DNA from: Acutalibacteraceae bacterium
GTDB taxonomy: Bacteria; Bacillota; Clostridia; Oscillospirales; Acutalibacteraceae
Assembly: GCA_045605425.1 (NCBI GenBank)
Contig: JAZUQA010000010.1
Span: 1-24,345, forward strand
Length of the DNA stretch: 24,345 nucleotides
Direction of reading: 5' to 3'
The number at the start of each line of letters is the position of its first letter. The first letter of the stretch is position 1. Positions 5,971 to 23,154 of the stretch are shown here, one piece after another. The notes below the pieces were generated by a model, which ran no database searches, was not told the origin of the DNA, and saw only the letters and a program-made list of their open reading frames with translations. A program made the position numbers and the translations under genes.

Positions 5971-6026
5971 AAAAGTTTGCACTAAAGTACGGTGTGCGGA
6001 AGATAAAATTATGATATTGTTATTAT
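5971..6026 (+). promoter_or_regulatory. Box A: conserved 28-nt element AAAAGTTTGCACTAAAGTACGGTGTGCG (5971-5998) plus -10 region (TGATATTGT / TATTAT 6021-6026)
   Basis: The 28-mer is identical to 12055-12082 and 17178-17205. The 22-nt distance from the box end to the second -10 hexamer is the same in all three copies. It lies upstream of the gene at 6089. Confidence 0.7.
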
Positions 6027-6088: not shown

Positions 6089-8239
6089 ATGAAATTTTTC
6101 AAAAAACCGTTAGCTGTTTTGCTGACACTTGCAATGGTTATCGGTATCTTTGCGGCAGTTGGTGTTAACACCTCTGCGGCAGAACCGGGACTTTGGGTAG
6201 GCGGTGTTGAGATGAACGATGGCGACTACCTTGCAAACGGTGCAACCGCAACCACAACAACCGAGCCTTCGGGCGGCTATGCTTATTTTAAAGACGGCGT
6301 GCTTACTCTCAACAACTATGTGTATGAGGGCGCCGGCGTTCCTCAAACTAACGGTCATGTGACATGGGCTGAGTTGATCAGTTATAAGATACCGCTGACA
6401 CTCAATCTTAAGGGCGATAATAAGCTTATTTTCGCTCCTGATTCAGAAGAAATCTCCACTTGCTATGCTGTCAGCAGTTACGATGCATATGACAGTAACC
6501 TTACGGTTGAAGGAGACGGCAAGCTGAGTACAAATGCTAGAAGGATACTTTATTCAGACGTATCTGATATAACTGTCAACGGCGGCATAATTGAAGGCAC
6601 TATATACGCGCTGAATAAAAACATTACTATCAATGATGGTTATATTATAGGTATTATATATGCAAACGGCAGAATTGTAATCAACGGCGGTACAGTTTAT
6701 GGTGGAGATATCTCTTCATACAATGCTATTACTATCAACGGCGGTAATATTCTCGCTGTAAACCGCACTGAATATGATGATGATACAGATAGATATGCAA
6801 TACAGGTTGAAGATGAAGAACCTGCTGATTCTATCACTTTCGCTCCCTCACTTGTAATCAAGGCTTCAACAGAGCCTTACGGCGAGCTTGTTGATTACGT
6901 AGCAGAAAATCATAAGGATTACGATATGATAGTAATCGGCGATATTCACTTCTGTGATGTCGCACTTGTTGAAGGTACAGAGGCTGACTGCGAAAACGAC
7001 GGCTACAAGCCATACTACGAGTGCGAGTGCGGCAAGTGCTATCTTGACGAAAACTGCGAAGAAGAGATTGCAGACATTAACGAATGGAAGTCGGGCGACG
7101 GTTTAATCCCCGCACTCAATCACCCCGAAAGAACAGACACTGTTGTAACAGAGGCCACCTGTAGCAAGGAAGGCGTTATTGAAACAACCTGCGATATCTG
7201 CGGTGACGTTATTGCCACAACTGCTATTGAAAAGCTTCCTCACGCTGAAACTATCGACGTGCCCACAACAAAGCCCACCTGCACGGATGCAGGCATTATC
7301 GAAACCTTCTGCACAGAGTGCGGCGAAAAGACAGCTACAAAGCCCGTTGAGTCCACAGGACACGACGAAGGAATCTGGAAGGTCGATTTTGAAGCAACAG
7401 CAGAGCACGACGGTCAGATGACACGTTACTGCACAAAGTGTAATGCAGTGCTTGAAACCAAGACATTTGAGAAGCACACACATACAGAGGGCTATACAAA
7501 GACAATCCCCGCAACCTGCACACAGGATGGCGAAAAGGCTACATTCTGCGCTGAATGCGGCACATGCTACAAAACAGAAGTAATCGAAAAGACAGGTCAC
7601 GGTGAAACAGTTGAAACAGTTTCCGTTAAGCCCACCTGCACACAGGCAGGCGAAAATGTCAAGTACTGTAAGGATTGCGGCGTTGCAGTTGAAACAGTGG
7701 TTGTTGAAGCAACAGACCATGCATGGAGTGGTTACAGCACAAATGCTAACGGCTCACACTCCAAAACCTGCTACAACTGCGGTGTTGAGGAAAAAGAAAA
7801 CTGCACATACACAGCAACTTCAACTGCATCAACCTGCCTTGAAAGCGGCTACACAAAGCACGAGTGCGACGTTTGCGGTCACAGCTACATTGACAGCGAA
7901 ACTCCGGCTCTCGGTCACAAGTGGGGTAAGTGGACAGACGACGCTAACGGTACAACTCACACAAGAGTATGTGATGCTTGCGGCGAAAAAGAAACTCACG
8001 ACCACGAGTGGGGTGAGTGGATATATAACGAGGACGGTACTTTCACAGAAAACGGCACCAAGACAAGAGCTTGTGCAATCTGCGGTGCTGAAGAAACTGA
8101 TACAGCTCACCACACATCCGATATCTGCAGATTCTTCTATCCCATAATCTGCTTTGTTGGTAACATTGTTCACAAGATTCTTTATACCCTTACACTTGAT
8201 TGGCTCTTCCCCGAAATTACAATCAAACCCGAGTTTTAA
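6089..8239 (+). CDS. Secreted/cell-surface protein: signal peptide, beta-helix-like N-terminal domain, ~10 Cys3-His repeat units, C-terminal hydrophobic tail
   Basis: RBS AAAGGAGA. Signal peptide MKFFKKPLAVLLTLAMVIGIFAAVGVNTSA/AEP. The segment from residues ~150-230 is rich in 'I.INGG.I' repeats. From ~6950 to 8110 there are repeats of the form H-x(10-13)-C-x4-G-x4-C-x2-CG, for example HAETIDVPTTKPTCTDAGIIETFCTECGEKTATKPVESTG. The tail is ...ICRFFYPIICFVGNIVHKILYTLTLDWLF. Confidence 0.8.
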   Translation: MKFFKKPLAVLLTLAMVIGIFAAVGVNTSAAEPGLWVGGVEMNDGDYLANGATATTTTEPSGGYAYFKDGVLTLNNYVYEGAGVPQTNGHVTWAELISYKIPLTLNLKGDNKLIFAPDSEEISTCYAVSSYDAYDSNLTVEGDGKLSTNARRILYSDVSDITVNGGIIEGTIYALNKNITINDGYIIGIIYANGRIVINGGTVYGGDISSYNAITINGGNILAVNRTEYDDDTDRYAIQVEDEEPADSITFAPSLVIKASTEPYGELVDYVAENHKDYDMIVIGDIHFCDVALVEGTEADCENDGYKPYYECECGKCYLDENCEEEIADINEWKSGDGLIPALNHPERTDTVVTEATCSKEGVIETTCDICGDVIATTAIEKLPHAETIDVPTTKPTCTDAGIIETFCTECGEKTATKPVESTGHDEGIWKVDFEATAEHDGQMTRYCTKCNAVLETKTFEKHTHTEGYTKTIPATCTQDGEKATFCAECGTCYKTEVIEKTGHGETVETVSVKPTCTQAGENVKYCKDCGVAVETVVVEATDHAWSGYSTNANGSHSKTCYNCGVEEKENCTYTATSTASTCLESGYTKHECDVCGHSYIDSETPALGHKWGKWTDDANGTTHTRVCDACGEKETHDHEWGEWIYNEDGTFTENGTKTRACAICGAEETDTAHHTSDICRFFYPIICFVGNIVHKILYTLTLDWLFPEITIKPEF

Positions 8240-8425: not shown

Positions 8426-10087
8426 TTGGTCAGAACAAAGTACAAAACCGTTATTTATTTAACCGGCGCACTTGTTTTGTCTATGTTCGGTATTGTTTAT
8501 AACGGTATAGATTTCCCGCTTTCCGATTCTTATATGAAAAATACATTTACTCTTATTCCTCATCTTATTTTTATTACATTGCAGGTTGGTTGGGTTATAT
8601 CTCTCCAACGCCGCATTATTAACAAGCGAATACGCATTTACCTGATTGCTGTCGGTTTGCTTATGGCGTTCTGGTTAACGGTGCGCACCTGTAAGTGGTT
8701 TTTTGTTTCCGATATGGAGGTTTTGTGCCGCTATTTGTGGTATGCGTTTTATATTCCTATGGTTCTTATTCCTCTTATAGGTGTGTTTATTACAACGTAT
8801 ATCGGTAAATCCGACAGCTATAAAATGCCAAAATGGCTCAATTTGTTTTTTATTCCTGCCGCAGCTCTTCTTGTACTGATTTTCACAAATGATTTTCACA
8901 ATCTCGTTTTTGAATTTCCGCACGGAATTGAGTTTTTTAATGACGATTATACCTACGGTGTCGGTTTTTATATCACTGCGTTCTGGTTTATTGCTCTCGG
9001 CTTCTATTTTGTTACAATGCTCATTATTAAAAGCCGTGTGCCCGGCAGCAAGACAGTTCAGACCCTGCCCTTGGTAATAATGGCCTGCGCCGTTGTTTTC
9101 TGGCTTCTTTATTCATCGAAAATTATCAATGTTGACCTTACCGCTGTTGACTGTCTTATTATTACTCTGCTTCTTGAAAGTGCGATACAAAGCGGACTTA
9201 TACGCTCAAATACGGGCTATAACGAGCTTTTTGAGATTTCAACTGTTGCCGCACAGGTTGTTGACAGAAATTATCAGACCTGTTACATATCTGCTTATGC
9301 CGATGATTATCCTGAGGATGTAATGAAAAGTGCAGCCGAGAAGGCTGTCGACCTTGGCAAAACAATACTTCACAGTAAGCCTGTTTCGGGCGGATATTTC
9401 CTTTGGCAGGATGATGTAAAGCAGATAAAAAGCCTTATGAAAACGCTTGAAGAAACTCAGGAAAGATTAAGCGAAAACAACTTTCTTTTAAGAGCTGAAA
9501 TTGAAATCAAGGAGCAAAAGGCACGCTTTGATGAAAAAAACCGCCTGTATGACCGTATTGCACAGGATGTTGCAATGCAGCTGTCATTGGCGGATGACTT
9601 GATTGCACAGGCTGAAAAAAATCCGGAGAGCGCTAACAAAGCCTTGGCGCAGGTTTGTGTAATCAGCGCATACATAAAGCGCAGAAGTAACCTTCTTTTA
9701 CTCGGGGAGGAAAACAACTTTATTTCAGCAGGCGAGCTTGAATTTTGTCTGCATGAATCGCTTGATAATCTTCGTTTGCTCGGTGTTTTTACATCGGTTA
9801 ACAGCAGCTGTAACGGCTTAGTCAGCGTTGAAAATGCCGTTGCGGTGTACGATTTGTTTGAACAGATGGTTGAATGTATAATTCACGCTGTAAATGCGTT
9901 TATGGTTAATATAAAGAGCAGCGACGGTGTTATCAGCCTTTCACTTCAGGCGGGTGTTGATGAAGACGCTGATCTTTCGGGCTTAACTAATCTTCAAATT
10001 AACGGTGGTAATGTCAGTGTTGATATTGACTGTAACGACATTACGGTAGATATTCTTCTGCCTGCAGGGGGTGAAGAATATGCTTGA
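8426..10087 (+). CDS. Polytopic (7-8 TM) sensor-kinase-like protein, apparently a pseudo-kinase (no phosphoacceptor His, no G1/G2 ATP-lid boxes)
   Basis: RBS AAGGAGG (8412-8418) with a TTG start at 8426. The N-terminal ~260 aa contain 7-8 hydrophobic helices, like the HisKA_7TM-type N-terminal region. A coiled-coil segment EQKARFDEKNRLYDRIAQDVAMQL aligns by eye with the H-box of the next gene (KIRIHSELGQAL), with Tyr in place of His. The C-terminus has a GHKL-like layout but no DxGxG or GxGL motifs. Confidence 0.65.
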   Translation: MVRTKYKTVIYLTGALVLSMFGIVYNGIDFPLSDSYMKNTFTLIPHLIFITLQVGWVISLQRRIINKRIRIYLIAVGLLMAFWLTVRTCKWFFVSDMEVLCRYLWYAFYIPMVLIPLIGVFITTYIGKSDSYKMPKWLNLFFIPAAALLVLIFTNDFHNLVFEFPHGIEFFNDDYTYGVGFYITAFWFIALGFYFVTMLIIKSRVPGSKTVQTLPLVIMACAVVFWLLYSSKIINVDLTAVDCLIITLLLESAIQSGLIRSNTGYNELFEISTVAAQVVDRNYQTCYISAYADDYPEDVMKSAAEKAVDLGKTILHSKPVSGGYFLWQDDVKQIKSLMKTLEETQERLSENNFLLRAEIEIKEQKARFDEKNRLYDRIAQDVAMQLSLADDLIAQAEKNPESANKALAQVCVISAYIKRRSNLLLLGEENNFISAGELEFCLHESLDNLRLLGVFTSVNSSCNGLVSVENAVAVYDLFEQMVECIIHAVNAFMVNIKSSDGVISLSLQAGVDEDADLSGLTNLQINGGNVSVDIDCNDITVDILLPAGGEEYA

Positions 10088-11360
10088 TTTATATAGCCTT
10101 GCTATGGTGCCAAGAGCGCTGTTTATGACGGTTTTGTTTTTACTTTCAACTTTTAATGTATGCTGTCTGCCGAATGTTTTCAGGCGTGGGTATAAGCTGA
10201 TAACCAAGCTGCTGACGGTTGTTTTTATTGTGTTCAGCTTTTCATTTTGTGTTATTCTGACTACCGGGATATACGCCTTGCTTGATGGGAAAGAAATTCC
10301 GCAGTTAAGTCTGAAATTCGGAAGTAATGCGGAATATGTTCTGTTTTTTATGCTTGTGAACAGTGTTTTCCTTGTTCTTATTGTTGTCGGCGAGTACAGA
10401 TATATTAGAAACAGCGTTTCTACATTGTCAATTAAAGAAAGCTTTGACCATCTGCCGACAGGTCTTTGTTTTTCAAAAGCAAACGGTACGGTTCAGCTTG
10501 TTAATCACAAGATGAATGAATTAAGCCATATTATAACCGGTGAAGAGCTGCAGAACGCCAACCGATTCTGGAGAATTCTGTGCAACGGTTCGGTTTTAGC
10601 TGATGTTCAGCGTTTATCCAAGGGAAAGCAACCGGAATTCAGACTCAGCGACGGTACAATTTATACCTTTGCCAGAGAAAAGGTTGAAAATGTTTTCCAG
10701 CTGACAGCCACCGATACAACCGGACTTCATAAGCTCAAAAACCGCTTGCAGAGCAATAACGAAGAGCTTGAGGAAATGAACGCAAGGCTTCGTGCTTACG
10801 GTGAAACGGTTGATGAAACGACAAGGGCACGAGAAAGACTTGAAACAAAAATACGAATTCACAGCGAGCTTGGTCAGGCTTTGCTTGCAACACGCCATTG
10901 CCTTCATCAGCCCGATGCGGATTTGCAGCCTGTACTGAATGCGTGGAAAAGAAATATTGCCGTTCTTCGTACGGAGGCTGAACCCTCGCAGAATACGGAT
11001 TTGCTTCAGTCGCTTATTGCGGTTGCGGAGTCTGCCGGCGTAAGCGTTGAGATTAACGGCAGCATTCCGCAGGATGAAACTGTGGCTTCCGTTATGACCT
11101 CTGCGGCTACCGAAGCACTTACCAACGCCGTGCGTCACGCTCAGGCAACAACACTTTTTGTTGAGTTTACCGAGTCGGATGAGTTTTATTTTGCCCGCTA
11201 TACCAACGATGGCAATGTTCCCGATAAAGAAATTAATGAGGGCGGCGGTCTTGGCTCGCTGCGGAATAAAATTGAACGCTGCGGCGGCGAAATGCATATT
11301 CAGTCTGTTCCGAAGTATGTTCTCGATATATCTTTACCAAAAGAGGTGAGCGGGTTTTGA
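10080..11360 (+). CDS. Membrane sensor histidine kinase, HisKA_3 / NarX-LiaS-DesK class
   Basis: ATG 10080 lies 7 nt after GGGGGTG. GTG 10071 is an alternative start, and either start overlaps the upstream stop at 10085-10087. The protein has 3-4 N-terminal TM helices and a PAS-like segment (FDHLPTGLCFSKANGTVQLVNHKMNEL). The H-box is RIHSELGQALL, the N-box TEALTNAVRHA, the G1-like box YTNDGNV and the G2 box GGGLGSLRNKIE. Confidence 0.85.
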   Translation: MLDLYSLAMVPRALFMTVLFLLSTFNVCCLPNVFRRGYKLITKLLTVVFIVFSFSFCVILTTGIYALLDGKEIPQLSLKFGSNAEYVLFFMLVNSVFLVLIVVGEYRYIRNSVSTLSIKESFDHLPTGLCFSKANGTVQLVNHKMNELSHIITGEELQNANRFWRILCNGSVLADVQRLSKGKQPEFRLSDGTIYTFAREKVENVFQLTATDTTGLHKLKNRLQSNNEELEEMNARLRAYGETVDETTRARERLETKIRIHSELGQALLATRHCLHQPDADLQPVLNAWKRNIAVLRTEAEPSQNTDLLQSLIAVAESAGVSVEINGSIPQDETVASVMTSAATEALTNAVRHAQATTLFVEFTESDEFYFARYTNDGNVPDKEINEGGGLGSLRNKIERCGGEMHIQSVPKYVLDISLPKEVSGF

Positions 11361-11992
11361 TTAAGGTTCTGATAGTAGAAGACGACCCTATGGCACGTAA
11401 GCTCCTTGAAATTTACGTCAACGACAGCTTTGATTACATTCTTTCTCATTCAATAGAAAGCGCAGCAATGGCAGAGCTCTATTGTATGAAAAACGATGTT
11501 GATCTGATTCTTATGGACGTCTGCACGGCAATGGACGCAAACGGACTTGACGCTGCTGCAAAAATCAAGAAGAGCTTTCCGAAAATTAAAATAGTTATTG
11601 TAACAAGTCAGCCGGAGTTCAGCTATATTGACAGAGCACGTGCGGCAGGAGTTGAAAGCTTCTGGTATAAGAGTGCCTCTGCTGAGGAAATAATTGAGGT
11701 TATGGACAGAACAATGGCAGGGGAGTCCGTTTACCCGGACACTACGCCTACACTCAGGCTCGGTTCAGCAATGAATATTGACCTTACCGAAAAGGAGCTT
11801 GAGGTTCTGCGTGAGGTTATAAACGGAGAATCCGATGCGGGAATAGCCGAAAAGCTGCATATGTCTCTGCGTACGGTAAAGGGACATATACAGAGTATGC
11901 GTGACAAAACAGGCTTCCGTAACCGCACAGAGCTTGCCGTAAGAACACGGGAAAGCGGAATTATAATCAACGACCATAAAAAAGAACAATAA
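11357..11992 (+). CDS. Response regulator, NarL/FixJ (LuxR-type HTH) family
   Basis: The TTG start overlaps the kinase stop (TTGA, 11357-11360). Receiver motifs are present: VLIVEDDP, DLILMDV (Asp54), IVIVTS and WYKS. The C-terminal LTEKELEVLREVINGESDAGIAEKLHMSLRTVKGHIQSMRDK is a LuxR/GerE HTH. Confidence 0.9.
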   Translation: MIKVLIVEDDPMARKLLEIYVNDSFDYILSHSIESAAMAELYCMKNDVDLILMDVCTAMDANGLDAAAKIKKSFPKIKIVIVTSQPEFSYIDRARAAGVESFWYKSASAEEIIEVMDRTMAGESVYPDTTPTLRLGSAMNIDLTEKELEVLREVINGESDAGIAEKLHMSLRTVKGHIQSMRDKTGFRNRTELAVRTRESGIIINDHKKEQ

Positions 11993-12003
11993 CTTGCATT
12001 TGT

Positions 12004-12031
12004 GGCGGCGGAGAAATCCGCCGTCTTTTTT
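12004..12031 (+). terminator. Intrinsic terminator GGCGGCGGA-gaaa-TCCGCCGTC followed by T6 (duplicate of 8259-8286)
   Basis: Hairpin sequence identical to 8259-8280, 12 nt after the response-regulator stop. Confidence 0.85.
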
Positions 12032-12054
12032 ATGAAAAAAACTTCAGAATTACG

Positions 12055-12110
12055 AAAAGTTTGCACTAAAGTACGGTGTGCGAAGGAAAACAAATTGATA
12101 TAATTATAAT
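12055..12110 (+). promoter_or_regulatory. Box B: the 28-nt element (12055-12082) plus an extended -10 TGaTATAAT (12096-12104) overlapping a second TATAAT (12105-12110)
   Basis: Exact 28-mer. The downstream 19-mer TTGATATAATTATAATGTA is identical to copy C. It lies upstream of the gene at 12139. Confidence 0.75.
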
Positions 12111-12138
12111 GTACGATTATATAAAAGAAGGTGAATAA

Positions 12139-13806
12139 ATGGCATTTCGCAGGAAAGAGTTTTTGCAGGATGATTTCGGTGAAGAACATATTTCCTCAAG
12201 CGAGCACGTTATTTCCGACGAATATTCTTATCTCGATGAAACATCGGAATATGATGAACGCTTTTTTCATTCTGATGAATATAACCAGGAGTTTACTGCA
12301 GGCTTAAAAGAAAAAGAGCAGGAAGACGAGGGTGAGGAAGAGGCTGAAACTGAAGAAAAGCAAAAAATCAGCTTTCTCAACAAGACAGCCGATGCTGTTA
12401 AGAATATCGGAATTGTTCTTGCTGTCGGCGCAACGGTTGCCGTCAGCCCCATAGGTGACAGGCTGACGCAGTCCTTTACCGAGCCTGTGACTGAACACGA
12501 GCATATTATTTCTTCGGAATGGACATTACATAATGCCGCAAGCTGTTCTGCGGCGGGTGAGGAAGTGTTACTGTGTACCCTTTGCGGAGAAACACTTGAA
12601 ACAAGAATAGTTCCGCAGCTTGAACACGAGGCAGGGGACTGGACAGTCAGCGTTAATGCGGACTGTGTTAACAGCGGTATTGAAATTATACCGTGTATTC
12701 ATTGTAATGAGGCACTCGAAGAAAGAGAAATCCCTGCCGGTGAGCACGGCTCAAGTGACTGGATAATTGATACGGAGAAAACCTGTACCGTTGACGGAGT
12801 AAGGCATAAGGAATGCTCGGGCTGCGGTATGGAGCTTGAACGGGAAATAATCCCCGCAGCACACACCGTTGTAAAGGATCCGGCTGTTAAGGCAACCTGT
12901 AAAAAGGACGGCAAAACAGAGGGCTCACATTGCTCGGTTTGTAACAAGGTTCTGAAAGCACAGACTGTTGTTAAGGGCACGCACGTTGAGGTTGAAGACC
13001 CTGCTGTTCAGGCAACCTGCCAGAAGGACGGTCTTACAAAGGGTAGCCACTGCTCGGTGTGTAACAAGGTGCTTGTTGAACAAAAGGCTGTAAAAGGCAC
13101 TCACGTTGAAGTTGTGGATGCTGCAATAGCGACAACCTGCACAACCGACGGTAAAACACAGGGTAGTCATTGCTCAGCCTGCGGTAAGGTAATAAAAGCG
13201 CAGACCGTTATTTCCAAAACGGGACATAAAACTGTTAAGGATGCGGCTGTAGCGGCGACCTGTACAACAGAAGGTAAAACAGAAGGCAGCCATTGCTCGG
13301 TTTGTAACACGGTTATTACCGCACAGAAAATAATTCCCAAAACAAACCACAATGAAGTAATTGACCCAGCCGTAGCGGCAACTTGTTCCAAGACAGGTCT
13401 TACTGAAGGCAGTCATTGCTCCGTATGCCGTGAAATAATCATTGCGCAGAGTACCGTTGCAAAGAAAGCACATACCCCCGTAACAGATGCGGCTGTTGAA
13501 GCAAGCTGTACATCAGCAGGTAAAACACAGGGCAGCCACTGCTCAGCTTGCGGCACTGTTATAACGGCTCAGCAGACTATTCCTGCATTGGGACATACCA
13601 GAGTAGTAAGAGAAGGCAGTGAACCCACCTGCGACAGTGACGGATATACTGACTATATCTTCTGCCAGACTTGTAAGGAGATTATTCAGGAGCAGGAGGT
13701 TATACCTAAGCTCGGCCATCAATGGAAGGGTGAGCCGTTTACCGGTCCTAACGGTGCTCAGGTACTTACCTGTGAACGATGTGGCGAATCCAAAGAAGAT
13801 TTGTAA
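12139..13806 (+). CDS. Type II membrane-anchored protein: acidic N-terminal tail, one TM helix, 11 tandem Cys3-His repeat units
   Basis: RBS GAAGGTG. Residues 1-85 are very acidic (...KEKEQEDEGEEEAETEEKQK). The TM helix is IGIVLAVGATVAVSPIG. Repeats follow, for example HVEVEDPAVQATCQKDGLTKGSHCSVCNKVLVEQKAVKGT, with the pattern H-x11-C-x9-HC-x2-C. Confidence 0.8.
   Translation: MAFRRKEFLQDDFGEEHISSSEHVISDEYSYLDETSEYDERFFHSDEYNQEFTAGLKEKEQEDEGEEEAETEEKQKISFLNKTADAVKNIGIVLAVGATVAVSPIGDRLTQSFTEPVTEHEHIISSEWTLHNAASCSAAGEEVLLCTLCGETLETRIVPQLEHEAGDWTVSVNADCVNSGIEIIPCIHCNEALEEREIPAGEHGSSDWIIDTEKTCTVDGVRHKECSGCGMELEREIIPAAHTVVKDPAVKATCKKDGKTEGSHCSVCNKVLKAQTVVKGTHVEVEDPAVQATCQKDGLTKGSHCSVCNKVLVEQKAVKGTHVEVVDAAIATTCTTDGKTQGSHCSACGKVIKAQTVISKTGHKTVKDAAVAATCTTEGKTEGSHCSVCNTVITAQKIIPKTNHNEVIDPAVAATCSKTGLTEGSHCSVCREIIIAQSTVAKKAHTPVTDAAVEASCTSAGKTQGSHCSACGTVITAQQTIPALGHTRVVREGSEPTCDSDGYTDYIFCQTCKEIIQEQEVIPKLGHQWKGEPFTGPNGAQVLTCERCGESKEDL
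12862..13593 (+). repeat. Six in-frame tandem coding repeats of 120-123 nt (units 4-9 of the Cys3-His protein)
   Basis: Units of 40, 40, 41, 41, 41 and 41 codons begin with His codons at 12862, 12982, 13102, 13225, 13348 and 13471. DNA strings such as GGTAGCCACTGCTCGGTGTGTAACAAGGT recur. Confidence 0.85.
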
Positions 13807-13846: not shown

Positions 13847-14764
13847 ATGAGTAAAAAGAATAGTGCAAAAAAGGTTATCGGTTTAGTGTTTTCTGTTGTT
13901 GTTATTGCGGTTGTAGCTGCAGTTTTCAATATTTCACGTTTTACGTTCCTGCCTGAAGGCTTAAGGGCAAGTGTTAGCGGCTTTGTTGATACATATTTTT
14001 CAAATGCATCTGCTGTAATCAGCCTTAAATCAGTCGGCGCAGCGTTGCTTTCACTTGTTGCTGCCTTTGTTGTCGGCTATGTTGTTAAGTTTATTATAAA
14101 CGCAATTAAACTGAAGAATAACCGTTCACAGACGCTTCTTCAGCTTTTCGGCAAGTTCCTGGTTTATGCAATTTATATTGCCGGTATCGTTGTTGCTCTT
14201 GGCTGCTTCGGGATTGATACAACAGCAATTCTTGTCGGCGCAGGTGTGGTAGGTATTGTTGTCGGCTTTGGCGCACAGTCACTTGTTGAGGATATTATTA
14301 CAGGCTTGTTTATCGTTCTTGAAGGTGAGTTTGTTATCGGCGATATTATTACTATTGACGGATTTCGTGGTGAGGTTAAATCAATCGGTCTGCGTACAGT
14401 CAGCATTGAAGACCTTGGCGGCAATGTCCGTATTATCAACAACAGCGAAATCGGCTCTCTTGTTAACCTTTCCGATAACGTATCGGTTGCTGTTGTTAAT
14501 GTGCCTGTAAGCTATGATGATGAGCTTAAGGTTGCTGAGGCGGCAGTACAGGAGGCTCTTTCAGAACTTCCGAGCGAATATCCCGATATTTTCAAGGAAG
14601 CTCCGGTTTATAAGGGTGTTGATACGCTTGCCGAAACACATATTGAGCTTATGGTTGTTGCAAACGTTGCTGAAGAGAATATCTATAACGCACGCAGGAT
14701 TATGCAGCGTGAAATCCGCTATTCCTGTGAAAAGGCAAAACTGAATAAACCGTGTAACGATTGA
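13847..14764 (+). CDS. Small-conductance mechanosensitive channel (MscS family)
   Basis: Three N-terminal TM helices are followed by the MscS signature region ...GVVGIVVGFGAQSLVEDIITGLFIVLEGEFVIGDIITIDGFRGEVKSIGLRTVSIEDLGGNVRIINNSEI.... Confidence 0.85.
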   Translation: MSKKNSAKKVIGLVFSVVVIAVVAAVFNISRFTFLPEGLRASVSGFVDTYFSNASAVISLKSVGAALLSLVAAFVVGYVVKFIINAIKLKNNRSQTLLQLFGKFLVYAIYIAGIVVALGCFGIDTTAILVGAGVVGIVVGFGAQSLVEDIITGLFIVLEGEFVIGDIITIDGFRGEVKSIGLRTVSIEDLGGNVRIINNSEIGSLVNLSDNVSVAVVNVPVSYDDELKVAEAAVQEALSELPSEYPDIFKEAPVYKGVDTLAETHIELMVVANVAEENIYNARRIMQREIRYSCEKAKLNKPCND

Positions 14765-14787
14765 TTAAATTAATGGAGCGATATCTT

Positions 14788-15291
14788 ATGGCTAAAATAT
14801 ATAATGAGCATGAAATCAGAAAAGATTACCATATGCTTACAAAAAAGCTTATTGAAAATAATATTTCAATCACCACAATGGAAAGCTGCACATCGGGTCA
14901 GCTTGCCTCGTTGATAAGCGATACCGAAGGTGCATCGGGAATAATGAAGGGTGCATTTGTTACATACAGCAACGAGGCGAAAATCAAACAGGGCGTACCG
15001 GAAGAAATTATTGATAAATATTCCGTGTATTCTTCTCAGACCGCAAAAGCAATGGCGCAGGCGTGCAGTAAAACCTATAATGCCGATATTGGTATCGGAG
15101 TAACCGGTTCAATGGGTAATGTTGACCCGGCAAATGCGGCGGCTTCCGTGCCCGGTCAGGTCTGGTTTGCTTTCTGTATTAACGGCGAGATGTTCGAGTA
15201 TTATATTGAACTTGAACCTCAACCGACACGCTTTGAATATAAGATGGCTGTTGCCAAGGAAATAGTTGACGAGCTAAATAAGCTCATATAA
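14788..15291 (+). CDS. pncC: CinA C-terminal-domain / PncC-family nicotinamide-nucleotide amidohydrolase
   Basis: GGAG lies 9 nt upstream of ATG 14788; the ORF track starts at TTG 14761. The protein contains ...ISITTMESCTSGQLASLISDTEGAS..FKGAFVTYSNEAK...IGIGVTGSMG..., the standalone CinA/PncC (COG1546) pattern, and is about 167 aa. Confidence 0.75.
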   Translation: MAKIYNEHEIRKDYHMLTKKLIENNISITTMESCTSGQLASLISDTEGASGIMKGAFVTYSNEAKIKQGVPEEIIDKYSVYSSQTAKAMAQACSKTYNADIGIGVTGSMGNVDPANAAASVPGQVWFAFCINGEMFEYYIELEPQPTRFEYKMAVAKEIVDELNKLI

Positions 15292-15312
15292 ATGATCTTT
15301 GAGGAGAAGTCT

Positions 15313-15654
15313 ATGTTAAAACCGGTTACAAAGGATTATTCGGACCGCTCAACTTTAAAAGAATTTGAATTTGAATTTTATTGTGATTGCTGTAAAAAAG
15401 CAATTAAAACTCCGATAATTGAATTTAACTCCGGGTTTAAAGGAAAGTTTTTAAGCAAGGAAGTTAAAAAGGCGAGAGACATTATTTATGCAGCAGACCA
15501 CAGCAGTGCTTTTGAAAGAGCAAATATTGAAGCTTTATATGAGCTGAACAGATGTGAAATCTGCGGAGATATGGTTTGTGATGACTGTACTGTTTACGGT
15601 GAAAATTTAAACGGAGGATTTTGCTGCAAAAAGTGTGCAAAGAGTGAAGGATAG
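15313..15654 (+). CDS. Small Cys-rich hypothetical protein (probable zinc-binding)
   Basis: RBS GAGGAG lies 6 nt upstream of ATG 15313. It contains YCDCCKK and a C-terminal CEICGDMVCDDC...GGFCCKKC cluster. I recognise no family. Confidence 0.55.
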   Translation: MLKPVTKDYSDRSTLKEFEFEFYCDCCKKAIKTPIIEFNSGFKGKFLSKEVKKARDIIYAADHSSAFERANIEALYELNRCEICGDMVCDDCTVYGENLNGGFCCKKCAKSEG

Positions 15655-15658
15655 AAAT

Positions 15659-17125
15659 ATGAATAAATTTAAAAAACTTACAATTCTGCATTCTAACGAT
15701 TTGCATGGTGATTTCCTTGCAGAAAATGTAAATGATGACCTTATCGGCGGAGTCAGTATGCTTTCGGGATATGTCAATAAGGTCAGAAATGAAGTACCGA
15801 ATACGCTTTACTGCATTGCCGGTGATATGTTCAGAGGCTCTGTAATTGACTCCGAATTCAAGGGTACGAGCACAATAGAAATAATGAACGCTATTGCGCC
15901 CGATGTAGTTACGCTTGGCAACCACGAAACAGATTACGGAATAGCTCATCTTCTCTTCCTTGAAAAATGTGCTAAGTTTCCGATAATAAATGCAAATCTC
16001 TATATTAAATCCAATTCTGTCCGCCTTTTTAAGCCGCATAAAGTGCTTGAGGTGGACGGAATGAAGATTCTGTTTATCGGCATTATCACCGAAAGTGTTA
16101 TGAAGCAGGCGAGAAACGAGGGTCTTGTTGGCAGTTTTCTTGATGTACACGAGGCTGCCGAAGAAGTCGGCAGAATATGCGATGCATATAACGCAACTGA
16201 TATTGACCTGACTGTTCTGCTCACGCATATAGGCTTTGAAGAGGATAAACAGCTTGCCGCTATGCTTGACCCTGCGTGGGGTGTTGATATTATTATCGGC
16301 GGTCACTCCCATACTTTTATAGAAAACCCTGAAATTGTCAACAATATTGCCGTTGTACAGGCGGGAATAGGTACGGACCAGATAGGAAGATTTGACCTGA
16401 CAATTGATACGGATAATAACTGCCTGAATGATTTTGAATGGCGGTATGTAAAAGTCTGCCCTGAAAACTGCCCGAATGATGAGGCTATTGATAAAATTCT
16501 TGCATCTTATAAGAACGTAACTGATGTCAAGTATAGCCGTGTTATAACCCGTCTTAAAAGAAAGCTTACTCATCCCGGACGATATATGGAAACTGAACTT
16601 GGCGATTTGTTCTGCGATATTCTTGCCGAAAGTCTTGCTCTTGATGTGATGCTGCTCGCATCGGGTGCTATCAGAAATGATTCACTCGGACCTGTTGTTC
16701 AGGTTTCTGACCTTGCGGAGTGTTTCCCTTACGACGGGGACGTAAGACTGCTTTATATAACCGGTAAGCAATTAAAAGCAATGTTTACTTATGTGTTCCG
16801 GGACGAAGTATGGCAGGGGGGCGCAAGCGGATTCTTCCAGATTTCAAAACGTCTGCGTGTCAAGTATGACGTAAAGCAAAGAAAAATTTCAGATTTTACT
16901 TTTGACGGTGAACCGATTGAGGATGATAGGCTTTATAAAGTCGGTATGCAGCAGTTTCATTACAGAAGCTTTCAAAAATATTTCAATTTCCCGCTGAGCG
17001 AAATTGAGGAAAACCATCCGACCAGGGTGGTTGCAACTTCAGCGCGTGTTGTGATTGAGGAGCGTTTGTCTGAATGTCAGAACATTGATAAGGAAATTGA
17101 CGGAAGAATTATTATAAAAGAATAA
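15659..17125 (+). CDS. Cytoplasmic bifunctional metallophosphatase / 5'-nucleotidase-family protein (paralogue 1)
   Basis: ATG 15659 gives MNKFKKLTILHSNDLHGD. Motifs are present: GDMFRGS, GNHETDYG, LTHIGFEEDK and GGHSHT. The C-terminal 5'-nucleotidase substrate-binding domain is present. There is no signal peptide. Confidence 0.85.
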   Translation: MNKFKKLTILHSNDLHGDFLAENVNDDLIGGVSMLSGYVNKVRNEVPNTLYCIAGDMFRGSVIDSEFKGTSTIEIMNAIAPDVVTLGNHETDYGIAHLLFLEKCAKFPIINANLYIKSNSVRLFKPHKVLEVDGMKILFIGIITESVMKQARNEGLVGSFLDVHEAAEEVGRICDAYNATDIDLTVLLTHIGFEEDKQLAAMLDPAWGVDIIIGGHSHTFIENPEIVNNIAVVQAGIGTDQIGRFDLTIDTDNNCLNDFEWRYVKVCPENCPNDEAIDKILASYKNVTDVKYSRVITRLKRKLTHPGRYMETELGDLFCDILAESLALDVMLLASGAIRNDSLGPVVQVSDLAECFPYDGDVRLLYITGKQLKAMFTYVFRDEVWQGGASGFFQISKRLRVKYDVKQRKISDFTFDGEPIEDDRLYKVGMQQFHYRSFQKYFNFPLSEIEENHPTRVVATSARVVIEERLSECQNIDKEIDGRIIIKE

Positions 17126-17130
17126 GTAAA

Positions 17131-17176
17131 AGAGCTGATTTTTTTAACTTTTTTGTTAAAAATCAGCTCTTTTTTA
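17131..17176 (+). terminator. Intrinsic terminator: 13-bp stem AGAGCTGATTTTT / AAAAATCAGCTCT followed by T5
   Basis: Long perfect stem 6 nt after the stop at 17125, followed by TTTTTT. It is flanked by A-runs, so it is potentially bidirectional. Confidence 0.8.
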
Positions 17177-17177
17177 T

Positions 17178-17233
17178 AAAAGTTTGCACTAAAGTACGGT
17201 GTGCGGGGGATTTTAAGTTGATATAATTATAAT
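17178..17233 (+). promoter_or_regulatory. Box C: the 28-nt element (17178-17205) plus an extended -10 TGaTATAAT (17219-17227) overlapping TATAAT (17228-17233)
   Basis: Exact 28-mer with the same 22-nt spacing to TATAAT as copies A and B. It lies upstream of the gene at 17265. Confidence 0.75.
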
Positions 17234-17264: not shown

Positions 17265-18728
17265 ATGAAAAATTTAAAAAAGCTTACAATTCTTCACTCC
17301 AATGACCTTCACGGAGATTTCCTTGCGGAAAATATTGACGACAATCTTGTCGGCGGCGTTTCAATGCTTTCCGGTTATGTGGATAAGGTAAGAAACGAAG
17401 AGAAAAACACAATTTACTGTATCGCAGGCGATATGTTCAGAGGCTCTGTTATCGACTCAGAGTATAAAGGCATTTCAACAATCGAGATTATGAATATGCT
17501 TTCACCTGATGTTGTAACAATCGGTAACCATGAAACAGATTACGGCATTGCACACCTTCTCTTCATCGAAAAGTGCGCTAAATTCCCGATTATCAATGCT
17601 AATTTACATATCAAAACAAACGGCGCAAGACTTTTTAAGCCCCATTATATAGCTGAAATTGACGGTATGAAGGTGCTGTTTATCGGTCTTATCACTGAAG
17701 AAGTTCTTTCACAGACCAAGAATGATGGCATTATCGGTACTTTCGTTGACATTGATGAGGCTGCTGCTGAGGTCGGTAAAATATGTAACTCATATAATGC
17801 AACAGATATTGATTTTACGGTTCTTCTTACACACATCGGCTTTGAAGAGGATAAGAAGCTTGCTGCTTTGTTAGACCCTGCTTGGGGTGTTGATATTATT
17901 GTCGGCGGTCACTCTCATACATTCATTGATGAGCCTGCTGTTGTCAACGATATCGTTATTGTTCAGGCCGGTACAGGTACTGACCAGATAGGTCGATTTG
18001 ATATTATGGTTGATACAGACAACAACTGTATTGACAGCTACACATGGAAGAGTGTTCCGATAAATGCCGAGCATTGTCCCAAAGACGAGGCTTTGGAGAA
18101 TATTCTTAAGCATTATAAAGAGAAGACTGACGAAAAATACGGCAGACTTGTTACACGCTTCAAGAAAAAGCTTACTCACCCTGAGAGAACGAGGGAAACT
18201 GCACTTGGCGGTCTGTTCTCCGATATTATGCGTGAGAGTCTGGGCCTTGATATTATGCTTCTCGGCTCGGGTAGTGTCAGAAGCACTCAGCTTGGTCCGA
18301 TTGTCCTTTTCGCCGACCTTTGCGAATGCTTCCCGTATGATGATGCTTGCTATATGATCAAGGTTACGGGTGAGCAGTTCAAAAGGATGATAAAGCATAT
18401 GGTCCGTGATGGCGTATGGCAGGGTGAACATTGTGAGTTCTATCAGCTTTCAACGGGCTTACGTGTTGAGTATGACAGAGCAACACACACCTTTACACGC
18501 TTTGATATTAACGGCGAGCCTATGGATGACGAGAAGATTTACAAAGTAGGACTCCAGCAGTTCCATTACAATAATCTTGATGACTTCTTCAATATTCCCT
18601 TTGACGAAATTAAAGCTAACGGTGCTCCTGTTATGGTTTCAACATCATGCCGCAGTATATTTGATGAATACCTTTCAACTCATCAGAATCTTGACCGTGA
18701 TATTACAGGCAGACTTGTTATCAACTGA
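17265..18728 (+). CDS. Cytoplasmic bifunctional metallophosphatase / 5'-nucleotidase-family protein (paralogue 2)
   Basis: RBS AAGGAGA. It starts MKNLKKLTILHSNDLHGD and has the same metallophosphatase motifs as 15659-17125. By eye it is very similar in the N-terminal half and clearly more diverged in the C-terminal half. Confidence 0.85.
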   Translation: MKNLKKLTILHSNDLHGDFLAENIDDNLVGGVSMLSGYVDKVRNEEKNTIYCIAGDMFRGSVIDSEYKGISTIEIMNMLSPDVVTIGNHETDYGIAHLLFIEKCAKFPIINANLHIKTNGARLFKPHYIAEIDGMKVLFIGLITEEVLSQTKNDGIIGTFVDIDEAAAEVGKICNSYNATDIDFTVLLTHIGFEEDKKLAALLDPAWGVDIIVGGHSHTFIDEPAVVNDIVIVQAGTGTDQIGRFDIMVDTDNNCIDSYTWKSVPINAEHCPKDEALENILKHYKEKTDEKYGRLVTRFKKKLTHPERTRETALGGLFSDIMRESLGLDIMLLGSGSVRSTQLGPIVLFADLCECFPYDDACYMIKVTGEQFKRMIKHMVRDGVWQGEHCEFYQLSTGLRVEYDRATHTFTRFDINGEPMDDEKIYKVGLQQFHYNNLDDFFNIPFDEIKANGAPVMVSTSCRSIFDEYLSTHQNLDRDITGRLVIN

Positions 18729-20167: not shown

Positions 20168-21523
20168 ATGGGACTTATTAAAGCAGGAATAGGAGCACTC
20201 GGCGGTGTACTTGCTGACCAGTGGAAGGAATTTTTCTACTGTGATTCGCTTGAAAACGACGTGCTTATGGTTAAAGGACAGAAGCGAGTAGGCGGACGTT
20301 CTTCCAACACAAGAGGCAGTGATAACATTATCTCCAACGGCTCGGGTATTGCTGTTGCTGACGGTCAGTGTATGATTATCGTCGAGCAAGGTAAGGTTGT
20401 TGAGGTTTGTGCAGAACCTGGTGAATTTACCTATGATTCTTCAACAGAGCCTTCAATCTTCTCCGGTAAGCTTGGCGACACAATCAAGGAAACCTTCAAG
20501 CAGGTCGGTAAGAGATTTACATACGGCGGTGATACCGGCAAGGACCAGAGAGTTTATTATTTCAACACAAAGGAAATTCTCGATAACAAGTTCGGCACAC
20601 CCAATCCCTTTATGTTTGAGGTTGCCAACAAAAGACTTGGTATGTACCGTTCCGTACAGGTAAGATGTAACGGTGTATATTCCTACAGAATTACAGACCC
20701 GCTTCTTTTCTATACAAAGATTGCAGGTAATGTGGGCGATGAATACAGAAGAGAAGAAATTGACAATCAGCTCAAAACAGAGTTTATTTCGGCTCTTCAG
20801 CCTGCATTCGCAATGCTTACAGAGCTTGAGCTTCGCCCTGCACAGATTCCTGCGCACACAACTGAGCTCAAGGATGCTCTCAATAAGGCTCTTGCTGTTG
20901 ACTGGACAGACCGCAGAGGTATCTCCGTTGAATCCATTGCTCTTAATCCGATTACTCTTACTCCCGAAGATATGCAGAAGATTAATCAGATGGAAGATGC
21001 TGCAACAATAGGCTCAAATCCGTTTATGATGGCAGGCAGAATGACAGATGCACAGGCAAACGCAATGGAGGCTGCTGCCAACAATCCCAACGGAGCAATG
21101 ATGGGCTTTATGGGAATGAATATGGCAATGGGCGCCAACGGCGGCTTCAACGCTGCACAGATGTATCAGGCAGGCATGCAGCAACAGCAGCAAATGGCAC
21201 AACAGCAGGCTGCACCCGCACCTGCACCTGCACAGGCAGCTCCTGCAGCACCTGCAACGGGATGGAAATGTGCTTGCGGTGCAACCGTAAGCGGTAACTT
21301 CTGCACAGAGTGCGGAGCAAAGAAGCCTGCAGAAGAAGGCTGGACCTGTTCATGCGGTGCAGTGAATAAAGGTAAGTTCTGCCCCAACTGTGGCGGCAAA
21401 AAGCCTGCAGGCGCACCTCTTTACCAATGTGACAAGTGCGGCTGGAAGCCAGAAGACCCCCACAATCCTCCGAAGTTCTGCCCCGAATGCGGTGACATCT
21501 TCGACGAAAGCGACGCAAAATAA
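20168..21523 (+). CDS. SPFH-domain protein of the YdjI / COG4260 type with a low-complexity linker and three C-terminal zinc ribbons
   Basis: RBS AAGGAG. The N-terminus MGLIKAGIGALGGVLADQWKEFFYCDSL...NIISNGSGIAVADGQCMIIVEQGKVVEVCAEPGEF is the characteristic start of COG4260 SPFH proteins. The linker reads ...GMQQQQQMAQQQAAPAPAPAQAAPAAPA. The ribbons are WKCACGATVSGNFCTECG, WTCSCGAVNKGKFCPNCG and YQCDKCGW...KFCPECG. Confidence 0.8.
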   Translation: MGLIKAGIGALGGVLADQWKEFFYCDSLENDVLMVKGQKRVGGRSSNTRGSDNIISNGSGIAVADGQCMIIVEQGKVVEVCAEPGEFTYDSSTEPSIFSGKLGDTIKETFKQVGKRFTYGGDTGKDQRVYYFNTKEILDNKFGTPNPFMFEVANKRLGMYRSVQVRCNGVYSYRITDPLLFYTKIAGNVGDEYRREEIDNQLKTEFISALQPAFAMLTELELRPAQIPAHTTELKDALNKALAVDWTDRRGISVESIALNPITLTPEDMQKINQMEDAATIGSNPFMMAGRMTDAQANAMEAAANNPNGAMMGFMGMNMAMGANGGFNAAQMYQAGMQQQQQMAQQQAAPAPAPAQAAPAAPATGWKCACGATVSGNFCTECGAKKPAEEGWTCSCGAVNKGKFCPNCGGKKPAGAPLYQCDKCGWKPEDPHNPPKFCPECGDIFDESDAK

Positions 21524-21567
21524 TTTAACAAAAAATATAATTATAATTTTTAAAGGAGATTTTTATT

Positions 21568-22599
21568 ATGGGACTTTTTGATAAGAAATTCTGTGACATC
21601 TGCGGTGAGAAAATCGGCCTTCTCGGCAACAGAAAACTTGAAGACGGCAATATGTGTAAGGACTGTGCAAAAAAGCTTTCACCCTTCTTCAGCGACAGAA
21701 GAAGCTCTACGCTTGAAGAAATCAAGCAGCAGCTTGCCTACAGAGAGCAGAATAAACAGACTCTTGCATCCTTCAGACCGAACATCACTTTCGGCGACAG
21801 CAAGAAAATCTATGTAGATACAATTAACGGCAACTTTGTTGTTTCCAACTACAGCCCCAATAACTGGGATGAAGAAAATCCTGATGTTATGCCTCTTTCA
21901 ACAATTATGAGCTGCAACCTCAAGATAGATGAGGATAAGGATGAAATCTTTACTCAGGGTAAGGATGGTCAGAGAGTAAGCTACAATCCGCCCAGATACA
22001 AGTTCTACTATAACTTTATCCTTGAATTTAATGTTAACAACCCCTATTTTGATGATTTCAGAGTTCAGCTCAATAACTTCCGTATTGAAGGTATGGGCAC
22101 AATGGAATACAACAAATATCAGCAGATGGCTATGGAGGTTATCAACACTCTCACACCCGGCAGAGGCGCAATGCCCAATACGGGTATGAATCCCGGTATG
22201 GGCATGAATATGGGCGGTATGAATATGGGTATGAATAACGGTATGCCTATGAATCAGGGCTATGCTCCCGCAAATGCTTATGGCCAGCCCAACCCGTATG
22301 CACAGCAGAATCCTTATGCACAGCAGCAGCCCAACCCCTACGCACAGCAGAATCCTTATGCACAGCAGCAGGCTAACCCATATGCACAGCCCAATCCCTA
22401 CGGTCAGCCTCAGGCTAATACTTATGCACAGCAGAATCCTTACGCACAGCAGCAGGCTAACCCCTATGCACAGCAGAATGCTTACGCACAGCAGCCTGCA
22501 CAGGCTCCTGCTTCACAGAGCTGGGTTTGCCCTGCTTGTAATGCAGCAAATGAAAGTGGTGCGTTCTGCGCTTGCTGTGGTTCTCCCAAGGCTAACTGA
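21568..22599 (+). CDS. Zinc-ribbon protein (DUF4428-like N-terminus) with a Met/Gly/Asn-rich and NPYAQQ-repeat low-complexity region and a C-terminal zinc ribbon
   Basis: RBS AAAGGAGA. The N-terminus is FCDICGEKIGLLGNRKLEDGNMCKDCAKKLSPFF. The middle reads ...GMNPGMGMNMGGMNMGMNNGMPMNQG... followed by about 9 degenerate copies of (Q)(A/P)NPYAQQ. The end reads WVCPACNAANESGAFCACCG. Confidence 0.7.
   Translation: MGLFDKKFCDICGEKIGLLGNRKLEDGNMCKDCAKKLSPFFSDRRSSTLEEIKQQLAYREQNKQTLASFRPNITFGDSKKIYVDTINGNFVVSNYSPNNWDEENPDVMPLSTIMSCNLKIDEDKDEIFTQGKDGQRVSYNPPRYKFYYNFILEFNVNNPYFDDFRVQLNNFRIEGMGTMEYNKYQQMAMEVINTLTPGRGAMPNTGMNPGMGMNMGGMNMGMNNGMPMNQGYAPANAYGQPNPYAQQNPYAQQQPNPYAQQNPYAQQQANPYAQPNPYGQPQANTYAQQNPYAQQQANPYAQQNAYAQQPAQAPASQSWVCPACNAANESGAFCACCGSPKAN
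22262..22500 (+). repeat. Imperfect coding tandem repeats (18-24 nt units, CAGAATCCTTATGCACAGCAG-type) encoding NPYAQQ repeats
   Basis: Read directly from the sequence. The repeats are in frame within CDS 21568-22599. Confidence 0.8.
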
Positions 22600-22618
22600 T
22601 TAATGCTTTGATATTTCT

Positions 22619-23152: not shown

Positions 23153-23154
23153 CC

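Follow-up and report, generated by a model that had tools for sequence, protein, structure and literature searches.

The closest described counterpart of the protein analysed here lies in the extracellular IgA protease of Thomasclavelia ramosa (UniProt Q9AES2), in which chains of 35–40-amino-acid (aa) subdomains, each a three-stranded up-and-down β-sheet, are predicted to hold tetrahedral Zn sites of the 2His+2Cys or 3Cys+1His type at the subdomain junctions (PMC12237041, PMC12415215). Three such subdomains extend over ~110 Å, small-angle X-ray scattering is consistent with an extended rod, and the authors put the arrangement forward, subject to validation, as what may be a new metal-binding or 'periscope' fold (PMC12237041, PMC12415215). 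Both reports know these domains from AlphaFold models (AF2/AF3) alone, and a third paper on the enzyme likewise contains no structure of them. Periscope proteins in the established sense, the G5-E rods of SasG and Aap, are single-chain rods of core-less, single-layer β-sheets (PMC9704523). Here we analysed a 24,345-nucleotide (nt) stretch of DNA from an Acutalibacteraceae bacterium (assembly GCA_045605425.1, contig JAZUQA010000010.1, forward strand; hereafter, the window) and a gene at its positions 12139–13806 whose product, REP, is predicted to consist outside the membrane of a tandem array of the same module. We consider it rather probable that REP is a membrane-anchored, zinc-stapled rod protein that is paired with a MscS-type channel.

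A literature search covering zinc periscope repeats in Firmicutes, tethered or operon-linked MscS channels and CxxC surface repeats of Clostridia returned only the IgA-protease papers and the periscope review. Parts of this interpretation have thus been anticipated, since predictions for a single enzyme led to a description of the module in 2025.

Architecture of REP

The REP gene and its array comprise the following features, all on the forward strand.

12139..13806, + strand: REP gene, 555 aa, a signal-anchor-like segment followed by 11 Cys/His units
12499..12855, + strand: units 1–3 (aa 121–239), membrane-proximal, Trp-type subtype H-x5-W...C-x9-C-x2-C, kept in orthologues
12856..13587, + strand: units 4–9 (aa 240–483), regular subtype H-x11-C-x9-HC-x2-C, the core that varies in copy number
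13588..13803, + strand: unit 10 (a variant) and unit 11 (the distal cap, H-x-W...CxxCG, with the boundary His and no Cys1)
6089..8239, + strand: REP2, a secreted 716-aa protein of the same family, with an adhesin-like N-terminal domain and 10 units

REP contains 32 Cys, 24 His and 11 CxxC motifs, and consecutive CxxC motifs are spaced 34–41 aa apart, with a spacing of 40–41 aa in nine of the ten intervals. The strict pattern H-x11-C-x9-H-C-x2-C occurs six times, at aa 242, 282, 322, 363, 404 and 445, which correspond to units 4–9. The C-x10-C-x2-C spacing was observed seven times against an expectation of 0.15, with a maximum of three in 2000 shuffles of the ectodomain. Units 4–9 are 42–68% identical in protein sequence and 51–72% identical in DNA sequence, and Tandem Repeats Finder (TRF) reported no DNA-level tandem repeat in the gene and no array with a period of ~120 nt. 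An exact-sequence look-up found no identical protein on record. The initial annotation, made from the sequence and its reading frames, had described this frame as a tandem array of ~40-aa Cys/His units, regular in units 4–9, with a second protein sharing the unit. The motif counts and spacing bear out the array, the pattern has exactly six matches, and the second protein is REP2. Its count of three Cys in each of 11 units holds for 10 of them; the unit 11 cap has only two.

REP2 begins with a signal peptide, its N-terminal domain gives weak adhesin-like matches (pAdhesive_15, choice-of-anchor A), and it ends in a hydrophobic C-terminus. Some of its units are of a 2His+2Cys-like type, and its gene has a promoter box in common with REP.

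The REP unit is an IgA-protease module found across anaerobic Firmicutes

In searches of sequences in the Protein Data Bank (PDB), REP matched the T. ramosa IgA protease chain 9qa6_A with E = 3.6e-7 (phmmer) and E = 3.8e-5 (profile). The matched residues, 847–924, 937–998 and 1104–1132, lie in the regions named ZBD1/ZBD2 in one report (PMC12237041) and CTD2/CTD4 in the other (PMC12415215). By sequence comparison, the REP unit is the same module as these domains. It is not represented by a model in Pfam-A or in NCBIfam. The initial view that the unit matches no named domain family thus stands for these two collections, but not for the literature, in which the module has been described since 2025.

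A protein search gave more than 7,500 matches before saturating, in which the module is combined with dockerin, cohesin, SLH, LRR_5, Big_2, Flg_new and trypsin-like protease domains. An exhaustive profile search over 1.84 billion representatives of 50% identity clusters identified 50,868 proteins at E ≤ 1e-3, of which 14,130 reached E ≤ 1e-30; the largest homologues are 7,211 aa long, and up to 40 three-unit stretches were matched in a single protein. The unit had at first been called unusual for an outward-facing domain. With 50,868 representative clusters it is instead, among the extracellular repeats of anaerobic Firmicutes, one of the commonest. The module is a mainstream building block outside their cells, and its lack of annotation to date is the unusual part.

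Two Pfam families scored above their gathering thresholds on REP, namely RNase_II_C_S1 (PF18614, 44.5 bits) and Kazal_1 (PF00050, 25.2 bits, cutoff 21), and both matches are artefacts. The former covers only profile positions 13–42. A five-stranded S1/OB barrel was rejected, since AF2 gives open three-stranded units and Foldseek finds no OB fold, and the profile search of PDB sequences returned no RNase II or Dis3L2 chain at E ≤ 1. The Kazal_1 score is a sum of partial matches with per-domain E-values of 0.39–5.8, and it exceeds the cutoff because the unit has the identical C-x10-C-x2-C spacing and a Gly/Thr-rich hairpin. Many homologues carry PF18614, PF00050 or A24_N_bact labels, a risk of systematic mis-annotation.

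Predicted fold of the units

The initial annotation had proposed structure prediction for one to three units. We ran AF2 on a three-unit segment (aa 236–372) with an alignment of 54 three-unit sequences, and it predicted three-stranded β units with high confidence (mean predicted local distance difference test score, pLDDT, of 96.2). The model has nine strands in a 3+3+3 pattern; the strands 9–12, 27–30 and 36–38 recur every 40 aa, and the CxxC motif lies at the turn between β2 and β3. In the full-length AF2 model all 11 units are folded (pLDDT ~70–89), with three long strands in each of units 1–3 (pLDDT 79–89).

A Foldseek search of the PDB gave no match at E ≤ 1e-3. The nearest neighbours, weak and non-significant, were the core-less G5-E rods of Aap/SasG (4fum, 4wve and 8deo; E 0.04–0.07). 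Against BFVD, Foldseek found just two true matches, both of them proteins in which the REP-type repeat is joined to SLH or LRR domains.

Probable membrane anchoring and the conserved N-terminal segment

The region ahead of the array contains three features.

12139..12393, + strand: acidic N-terminal region (aa 1–85), predicted to be cytoplasmic, low-confidence/disordered
12253..12312, + strand: conserved motif DERFFHSDEYNQEFTAGLKE (aa 39–58) inside the acidic tail
12388..12456, + strand: hydrophobic segment (aa ~84–106), a putative N-in signal anchor

The first 85 residues contain 28 Asp/Glu and 9 Lys/Arg and have a pLDDT of 29–35. In the full-length model aa 1–118 stay below 50, with a single low-confidence helix at aa 77–93, in agreement with the strongly acidic, disordered-looking N-terminus noted at the outset. 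Within this tail, E40, R41, F42, F43, H44, D46, E47, Y48, N49, G55, L56 and E58 are invariant in four orthologues of 35–45% identity, and the resulting ERFFHxDEYN motif is also present at loci L003–L013 of the genome scan described below.

Residues ~84–106 form the single hydrophobic segment of the protein, as expected from the one transmembrane helix first assigned to it, but the segment is only marginally hydrophobic (19-aa Kyte–Doolittle mean 1.56–1.71, best 1.71). Its hydropathy and the Lys residues that precede it, on the putative cytoplasmic side, suggest that REP is probably a single-pass type II membrane protein in an N-in/C-out orientation. An outward-facing array is consistent with the SLH, dockerin, cohesin and LRR_5 domains of the homologues, while the topology of REP itself is read from hydropathy and flanking charge alone.

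The N-terminal 106 aa could instead be a long export leader that is cleaved, in which case the rod would not stay anchored in the membrane but would be released or bound to the wall. In favour of this reading, the hydrophobic segment is short and weak, with many Ala, Gly, Ser and Thr residues, and AF2 has low confidence over it. However, Sec leaders do not typically have an 85-aa, strongly acidic n-region; Lys residues mark the cytoplasmic flank of the segment; and the invariance of ERFFHxDEYN among orthologues of 35–45% identity argues for a cytoplasmic segment that is retained and functional. We therefore regard a cleaved leader as unlikely and keep the N-in anchor as the preferred topology.

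Orthologues vary in length by whole units

Orthologues were defined by an N-terminal ERFFH[SP]DEYN motif followed by a hydrophobic segment, and were recovered by motif mining and by a genome scan with an alignment of the N-terminus; a protein search with the N-terminal 125 aa alone returned one fragment, this query being too weak for the size of the database. The genome scan identified 11 loci in metagenome-assembled genomes of Acutalibacteraceae and Oscillospiraceae, in which the named hosts are ruminant guts. The orthologues keep the proximal units 1–3, the distal cap motif H-x-W...CxxCG and the cytoplasmic ERFFHxDEYN motif, while the central units vary in number to give totals of 6–11. Strains whose N-termini are 88–98% identical differ by one unit through an in-register 41-aa indel (514 versus 555 aa).

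REP is invariably followed by an MscS channel gene

13847..14764, + strand: MscS-family mechanosensitive channel gene (Pfam MS_channel_2nd, 7e-14; MS_channel_1st, 4e-7)

The channel gene follows REP directly at all 10 loci that have downstream sequence (9 distinct contigs, L001 and L008 being on the same contig), and the pairing holds at MscS identities of 66–100% while the flanking genes rearrange. A reverse search starting from MscS found REP adjacent in three of three further metagenome relatives (63–93% MscS identity). In the window the two genes are separated by a gap of 40 nt that contains no terminator. These observations suggest that REP is probably co-expressed with the channel and functionally linked to it.

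At L016, a divergent Cys/His-rich protein (positions 1–1079; many CxxC motifs, rich in Tyr, Trp and Asp) is encoded upstream of a 65%-identical MscS relative, which suggests that the family of MscS-associated partners is broader than the orthologues defined by ERFFHxDEYN.

A more specific relation, in which the neighbouring MscS-type channel has REP as its extracellular tether or as a subunit encoded separately, is in our estimate clearly improbable. A zinc-stiffened rod of ~40 nm would then pass through the wall, anchored beside the channel by the transmembrane segment and ERFFHxDEYN, and would couple wall strain, or the distance between wall and membrane, to the gating or placement of the channel. 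Its length would be fitted to the thickness of the envelope in steps of 3.7 nm, and a 'force-from-filament' element would be added to a channel family thought to sense membrane tension only.

A probable structural metal site in the units

In the alignment of 54 three-unit sequences (mean column identity 42%), invariance or near-invariance is confined to the boundary His, the three Cys, a hairpin Gly and, in the first unit alone, the Thr before Cys1; His(-1) is not conserved. If Gly(-7) marks the centre of the hairpin turn, positions -11 and -3 would lie opposite each other across the β1–β2 hairpin, and one or the other could reach the same ion. Ligand exchange was evaluated in 271 proteins with 5,086 well-formed units between them. 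Of these units, 94% retain Cys1, and where it is lost, a His at -3/-2 is enriched ~4-fold (Fisher p = 5e-10). This replacement of Cys1 by His(-3/-2) yields the arrangement found in the IgA protease at its 2His+2Cys sites. A unit that lacks Cys1 is often the terminal one of its array, like unit 11 of REP.

The odd number of Cys per unit, the invariant His, the Cys-to-His swap and the anaerobic hosts together favour a structural metal over cystines, and each unit would hold one structural metal ion, most likely Zn2+. The early proposal that the Cys3-His set fits metal coordination better than disulfide pairing is thus supported by the conserved columns, by the swap at Cys1 and by the predictions for the IgA protease.

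With 10–11 putative sites per molecule, REP might alternatively serve as an extracellular buffer or sensor of zinc or another metal, with metal occupancy rather than length as its output and possibly with a report to the two-component system or to the channel. The authors of the PNAS study on the IgA protease speculate that environmental zinc may regulate the function of the fold, and REP has its promoter box in common with other genes beside a sensor-kinase system (see below). However, a fully coordinated Cys3His site is typically a tight structural site and not an exchangeable one, as a matter of general knowledge and as argued in PMC12415215; thousands of unrelated surface proteins use the same module as a spacer; and the linkage to the two-component system is missing in the distant clade. 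A buffering or sensing role is therefore distinctly unlikely.

Extracellular Cys-rich domains are usually disulfide-bonded, and the units show local similarity to the disulfide-rich Kazal domains, so that REP could be thought of as a chain of disulfide-stabilised extracellular modules with cystines within or between units and no metal. Three Cys per unit is an odd number, however, and an invariant His accompanies them; when Cys1 is lost, a His tends to take its place, rather than a partner Cys being lost with it; and the gut Clostridia that carry the protein are strict anaerobes. Disulfides are neither seen nor predicted in the homologous IgA protease (PMC12237041, PMC12415215), and a reducing agent improved the monodispersity of the protein (PMC12237041). 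Taken together, these points make a disulfide-based array very unlikely and leave the metal-stapled unit as the preferred reading.

A reading of the array as a serine protease inhibitor with many Kazal-type heads is extremely improbable, for although Kazal_1 exceeds its cutoff, ovomucoid is the top PDB profile match (E = 1.9e-5) and the alignment gives the C-x10-C-x2-C spacing of Cys24-Cys35-Cys38 in OMTKY3, the Pfam score is the sum of partial matches noted above, a Kazal domain requires six Cys in three disulfides of which the three Cys of a REP unit have none of the three partners, AF2 places a β-strand after CxxC where Kazal has an α-helix, and Foldseek listed no Kazal structure among its PDB matches and nothing at E ≤ 1e-3.

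A proposed zinc-stapled rod beside a channel

The features described above would fit a REP ectodomain that is, as a whole, a stiff rod of 11 tandem three-stranded β modules. The modules would have no real hydrophobic core; a metal ion, likeliest Zn2+, would hold each one together and lock it onto its neighbour, the ligands being Cys1, the His at the unit boundary and the CxxC knuckle, which lies at the β2–β3 turn. Scaled from the published 11 nm per three IgA-protease subdomains, each module would contribute ~3.7 nm and the rod would measure ~40 nm, which would be enough to cross a Gram-positive wall, with its length tuned between strains in whole units. REP does not have the look of a carrier for an enzyme or adhesin head. 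The conserved ends (units 1–3, the distal cap and ERFFHxDEYN) and the invariant, probably co-transcribed MscS gene suggest that the rod works with the channel, and it may act with it as an envelope-spanning stalk or spacer.

Several points weigh against this picture. The coordinates of 9QA6 end at N876, before the ZBDs (PMC12237041). A four-ligand site leaves the His(-1) of units 4–9 unexplained. REP has no domain other than the units outside the membrane, so that a 'stalk' would have no evident head to project. The moderate DNA identity of its units and the negative TRF result do not correspond to the near-identical-repeat mechanism of the canonical periscope proteins. The anchor segment is marginal and AF2 is unconfident there, which allows for a long cleaved leader. 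All loci come from one order, and the MscS synteny may therefore partly reflect shared ancestry.

Promoter box, operon and neighbouring genes

The sequences that precede and follow the REP operon contain these elements.

12004..12033, + strand: intrinsic terminator, a GC hairpin (12004–12025; 9-bp stem with 7 GC pairs) followed by TTTTTTAT, which ends the upstream two-component-system operon
5971..5998, + strand: box copy 1, upstream of REP2
12055..12082, + strand: box copy 2, the 28-nt AAAAGTTTGCACTAAAGTACGGTGTGCG containing GCAC-N11-GTGC, upstream of REP
12096..12104, + strand: extended -10 element TGATATAAT of the putative REP promoter, identified by eye, with no good -35
14761..17125, + strand: rest of the putative operon, from overlapping or abutting open reading frames and Pfam matches, with CinA (14761–15291), a small Cys-rich protein (15292–15654) and 5'-nucleotidase a (15635–17125)
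17128..17175, + strand: AT-rich terminator hairpin and U-run (-20.4 kcal/mol, z = -6.75), which ends the REP operon
17178..17205, + strand: box copy 3, upstream of 5'-nucleotidase b (17265–18728)
8426..11992, + strand: two-component system with a 7TM sensor, a second kinase and a LuxR/NarL-type response regulator (Pfam), the candidate regulator of the box

The exact 28-mer AAAAGTTTGCACTAAAGTACGGTGTGCG has three copies where a window-wide k-mer comparison expects 0 by chance. Each copy lies directly after a terminator or a T-rich tract and ~13 nt before a -10-like element that contains TGATAT; TGATAT and an A/T-rich -10-like stretch are common to the three box promoters, and the exact TGATATAAT is found only at REP and 5'-nucleotidase b. 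A σ70 promoter scan upstream of REP gave no match on the + strand. The lack of a good -35, together with the position of the -10 element, would place the box near -42, like a class II activator site, and we infer that it is a putative activator site centred about there. The three promoters would form a small box regulon, for which the LuxR-type response regulator encoded next to REP is a possible controller. The putative transcript carries REP, MscS, CinA, the small Cys-rich protein and 5'-nucleotidase a.

The box is kept at the same three promoters in close strains (L003–L007) and is absent from the distant clade. In close strains the terminator at 12004..12033 is also kept upstream of REP, whichever gene precedes it, and the cassette of terminator, box and promoter stays with REP in L003–L007 and in the window. 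The two-component system lies upstream of REP in the closest relatives only. Four close relatives have a gene for a 490-aa secreted protein, or non-homologous sequence, between the two: L005 (6372–7844) and L007 (6360–7844) contain the extra ~490-aa secreted-protein gene between the response regulator and REP, L003 and L004 have similar non-homologous sequence upstream of REP, and L006 and the window (at positions 11993–12138) have no insertion. In the distant clade an XpaC-like gene precedes REP instead of the two-component system. REP had initially been placed first in a box-controlled operon immediately downstream of the two-component system; the box and the multi-gene operon hold, but the adjacency is not conserved.

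The sensor region (8426–11360) contains two tandem genes with overlapping ends. The N-terminal region of the first sensor (553 aa) is of the HisKA_7TM type, and a kinase domain is not recognised in this protein; the second (429 aa) has no Pfam match and, by eye, a C-terminus that looks like a NarL-family kinase. The product of 15292–15654 is a 120-aa, Cys-rich protein (CDCC..., CEICGDMVCDDC..., CCKKC) that has no Pfam match and is kept in close strains; its reading frame runs into the beginning of 5'-nucleotidase a. The genes at 15635–17125 and 17265–18728 are tandem paralogues of the 5'-nucleotidase/metallophosphoesterase type, of which the first closes the REP operon and the second has its own box. 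Further downstream, a cluster at 20168–24234 encodes an SPFH/Band-7 protein that has three zinc ribbons at its C-terminus, a DUF4428 protein containing a long low-complexity tract of the NPYAQQ type, and another two membrane or zinc-ribbon proteins. It lies 6 kb downstream of REP-MscS in the window; in the distant clade the cluster lies upstream of REP-MscS, directly so in L001 (1–2646), where it is accompanied by the XpaC-like gene.

Comparison with known systems

Few unannotated extracellular repeats of anaerobic Firmicutes are as abundant as this module, which two unrelated Pfam families mislabel. If the Cys3His zinc sites are real, they would represent a general route to stiff surface rods in anaerobes that needs neither disulfides nor a hydrophobic core, with a bearing on the zinc demand of gut communities and on the annotation of cellulosomal, S-layer and adhesin proteins. 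REP, as a rod only, of 11 units, offers a clean minimal model, and its pairing with MscS is a lead to a function beyond that of a 'spacer'. What this analysis adds to the published description is the size of the family, its mislabelling by Pfam and the evidence from ligand exchange, together with a rod-only architecture that has a conserved cytoplasmic motif, a polymorphism in unit number and an invariant MscS partner.

Compared with the IgA protease (Q9AES2; PMC12237041, PMC12415215), REP has the same unit of ~35–40 aa with three-stranded up-and-down sheets, Cys/His sets of four and a predicted extended, extracellular rod. In the protease, however, 3+2 subdomains form a part of the stalk between the metalloprotease and a C-terminal sortase anchor, whereas in REP 11 units make up the entire ectodomain, the anchor is N-terminal and there is no enzyme or adhesin head. 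Most of the putative REP sites are of the 3Cys+1His type and have His(-1) in addition, while those of the protease are mostly 2His+2Cys, and REP alone has the conserved cytoplasmic motif and the MscS synteny.

The periscope proteins (SasG/Aap G5-E; PMC9704523) resemble REP as single-chain rods of core-less single-layer β-sheets, and REP too varies by whole units between close strains (514 versus 555 aa). Their repeats are near-identical in DNA, whereas REP units are 51–72% identical, and they combine a functional domain at the distal end with a sortase anchor, whereas the anchor of REP is an N-terminal hydrophobic segment. The Zn of Aap bridges two molecules through His/Asp/Glu, while that of REP would staple each unit through Cys.

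Of the smaller Cys-containing domains, the Kazal domain (PF00050) has in common with the REP unit the C-x10-C-x2-C spacing and the Gly/Thr-rich hairpin, but the REP unit has half the cysteines, no helix, no reactive-site loop context and a different predicted fold. The zinc ribbon (for example, the C-terminal domain of TFIIS) has a similar CxxC knuckle at a β-hairpin turn and a three-stranded sheet, and one subdomain of the IgA protease distantly resembles it (PMC12237041). The classical ribbon has two CxxC knuckles, however, whereas the REP unit has one, plus a lone Cys and the boundary His; the REP units are tandem, would be extracellular and rod-forming, and have no significant fold match in the PDB.

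MscS channels of the MscK/MscM type have a large extracytoplasmic extension fused to the MscS-type pore. REP and its neighbour likewise bring together an MscS-type pore and a large domain outside the membrane, but the MscK/MscM extension is fused and is not a Cys/His rod, whereas REP is a separate gene product whose association with the channel is hypothetical. In the best-supported reading, REP is a new architectural variant of the ZBD-type module of the IgA protease, with a strain-variable length and no distal head.

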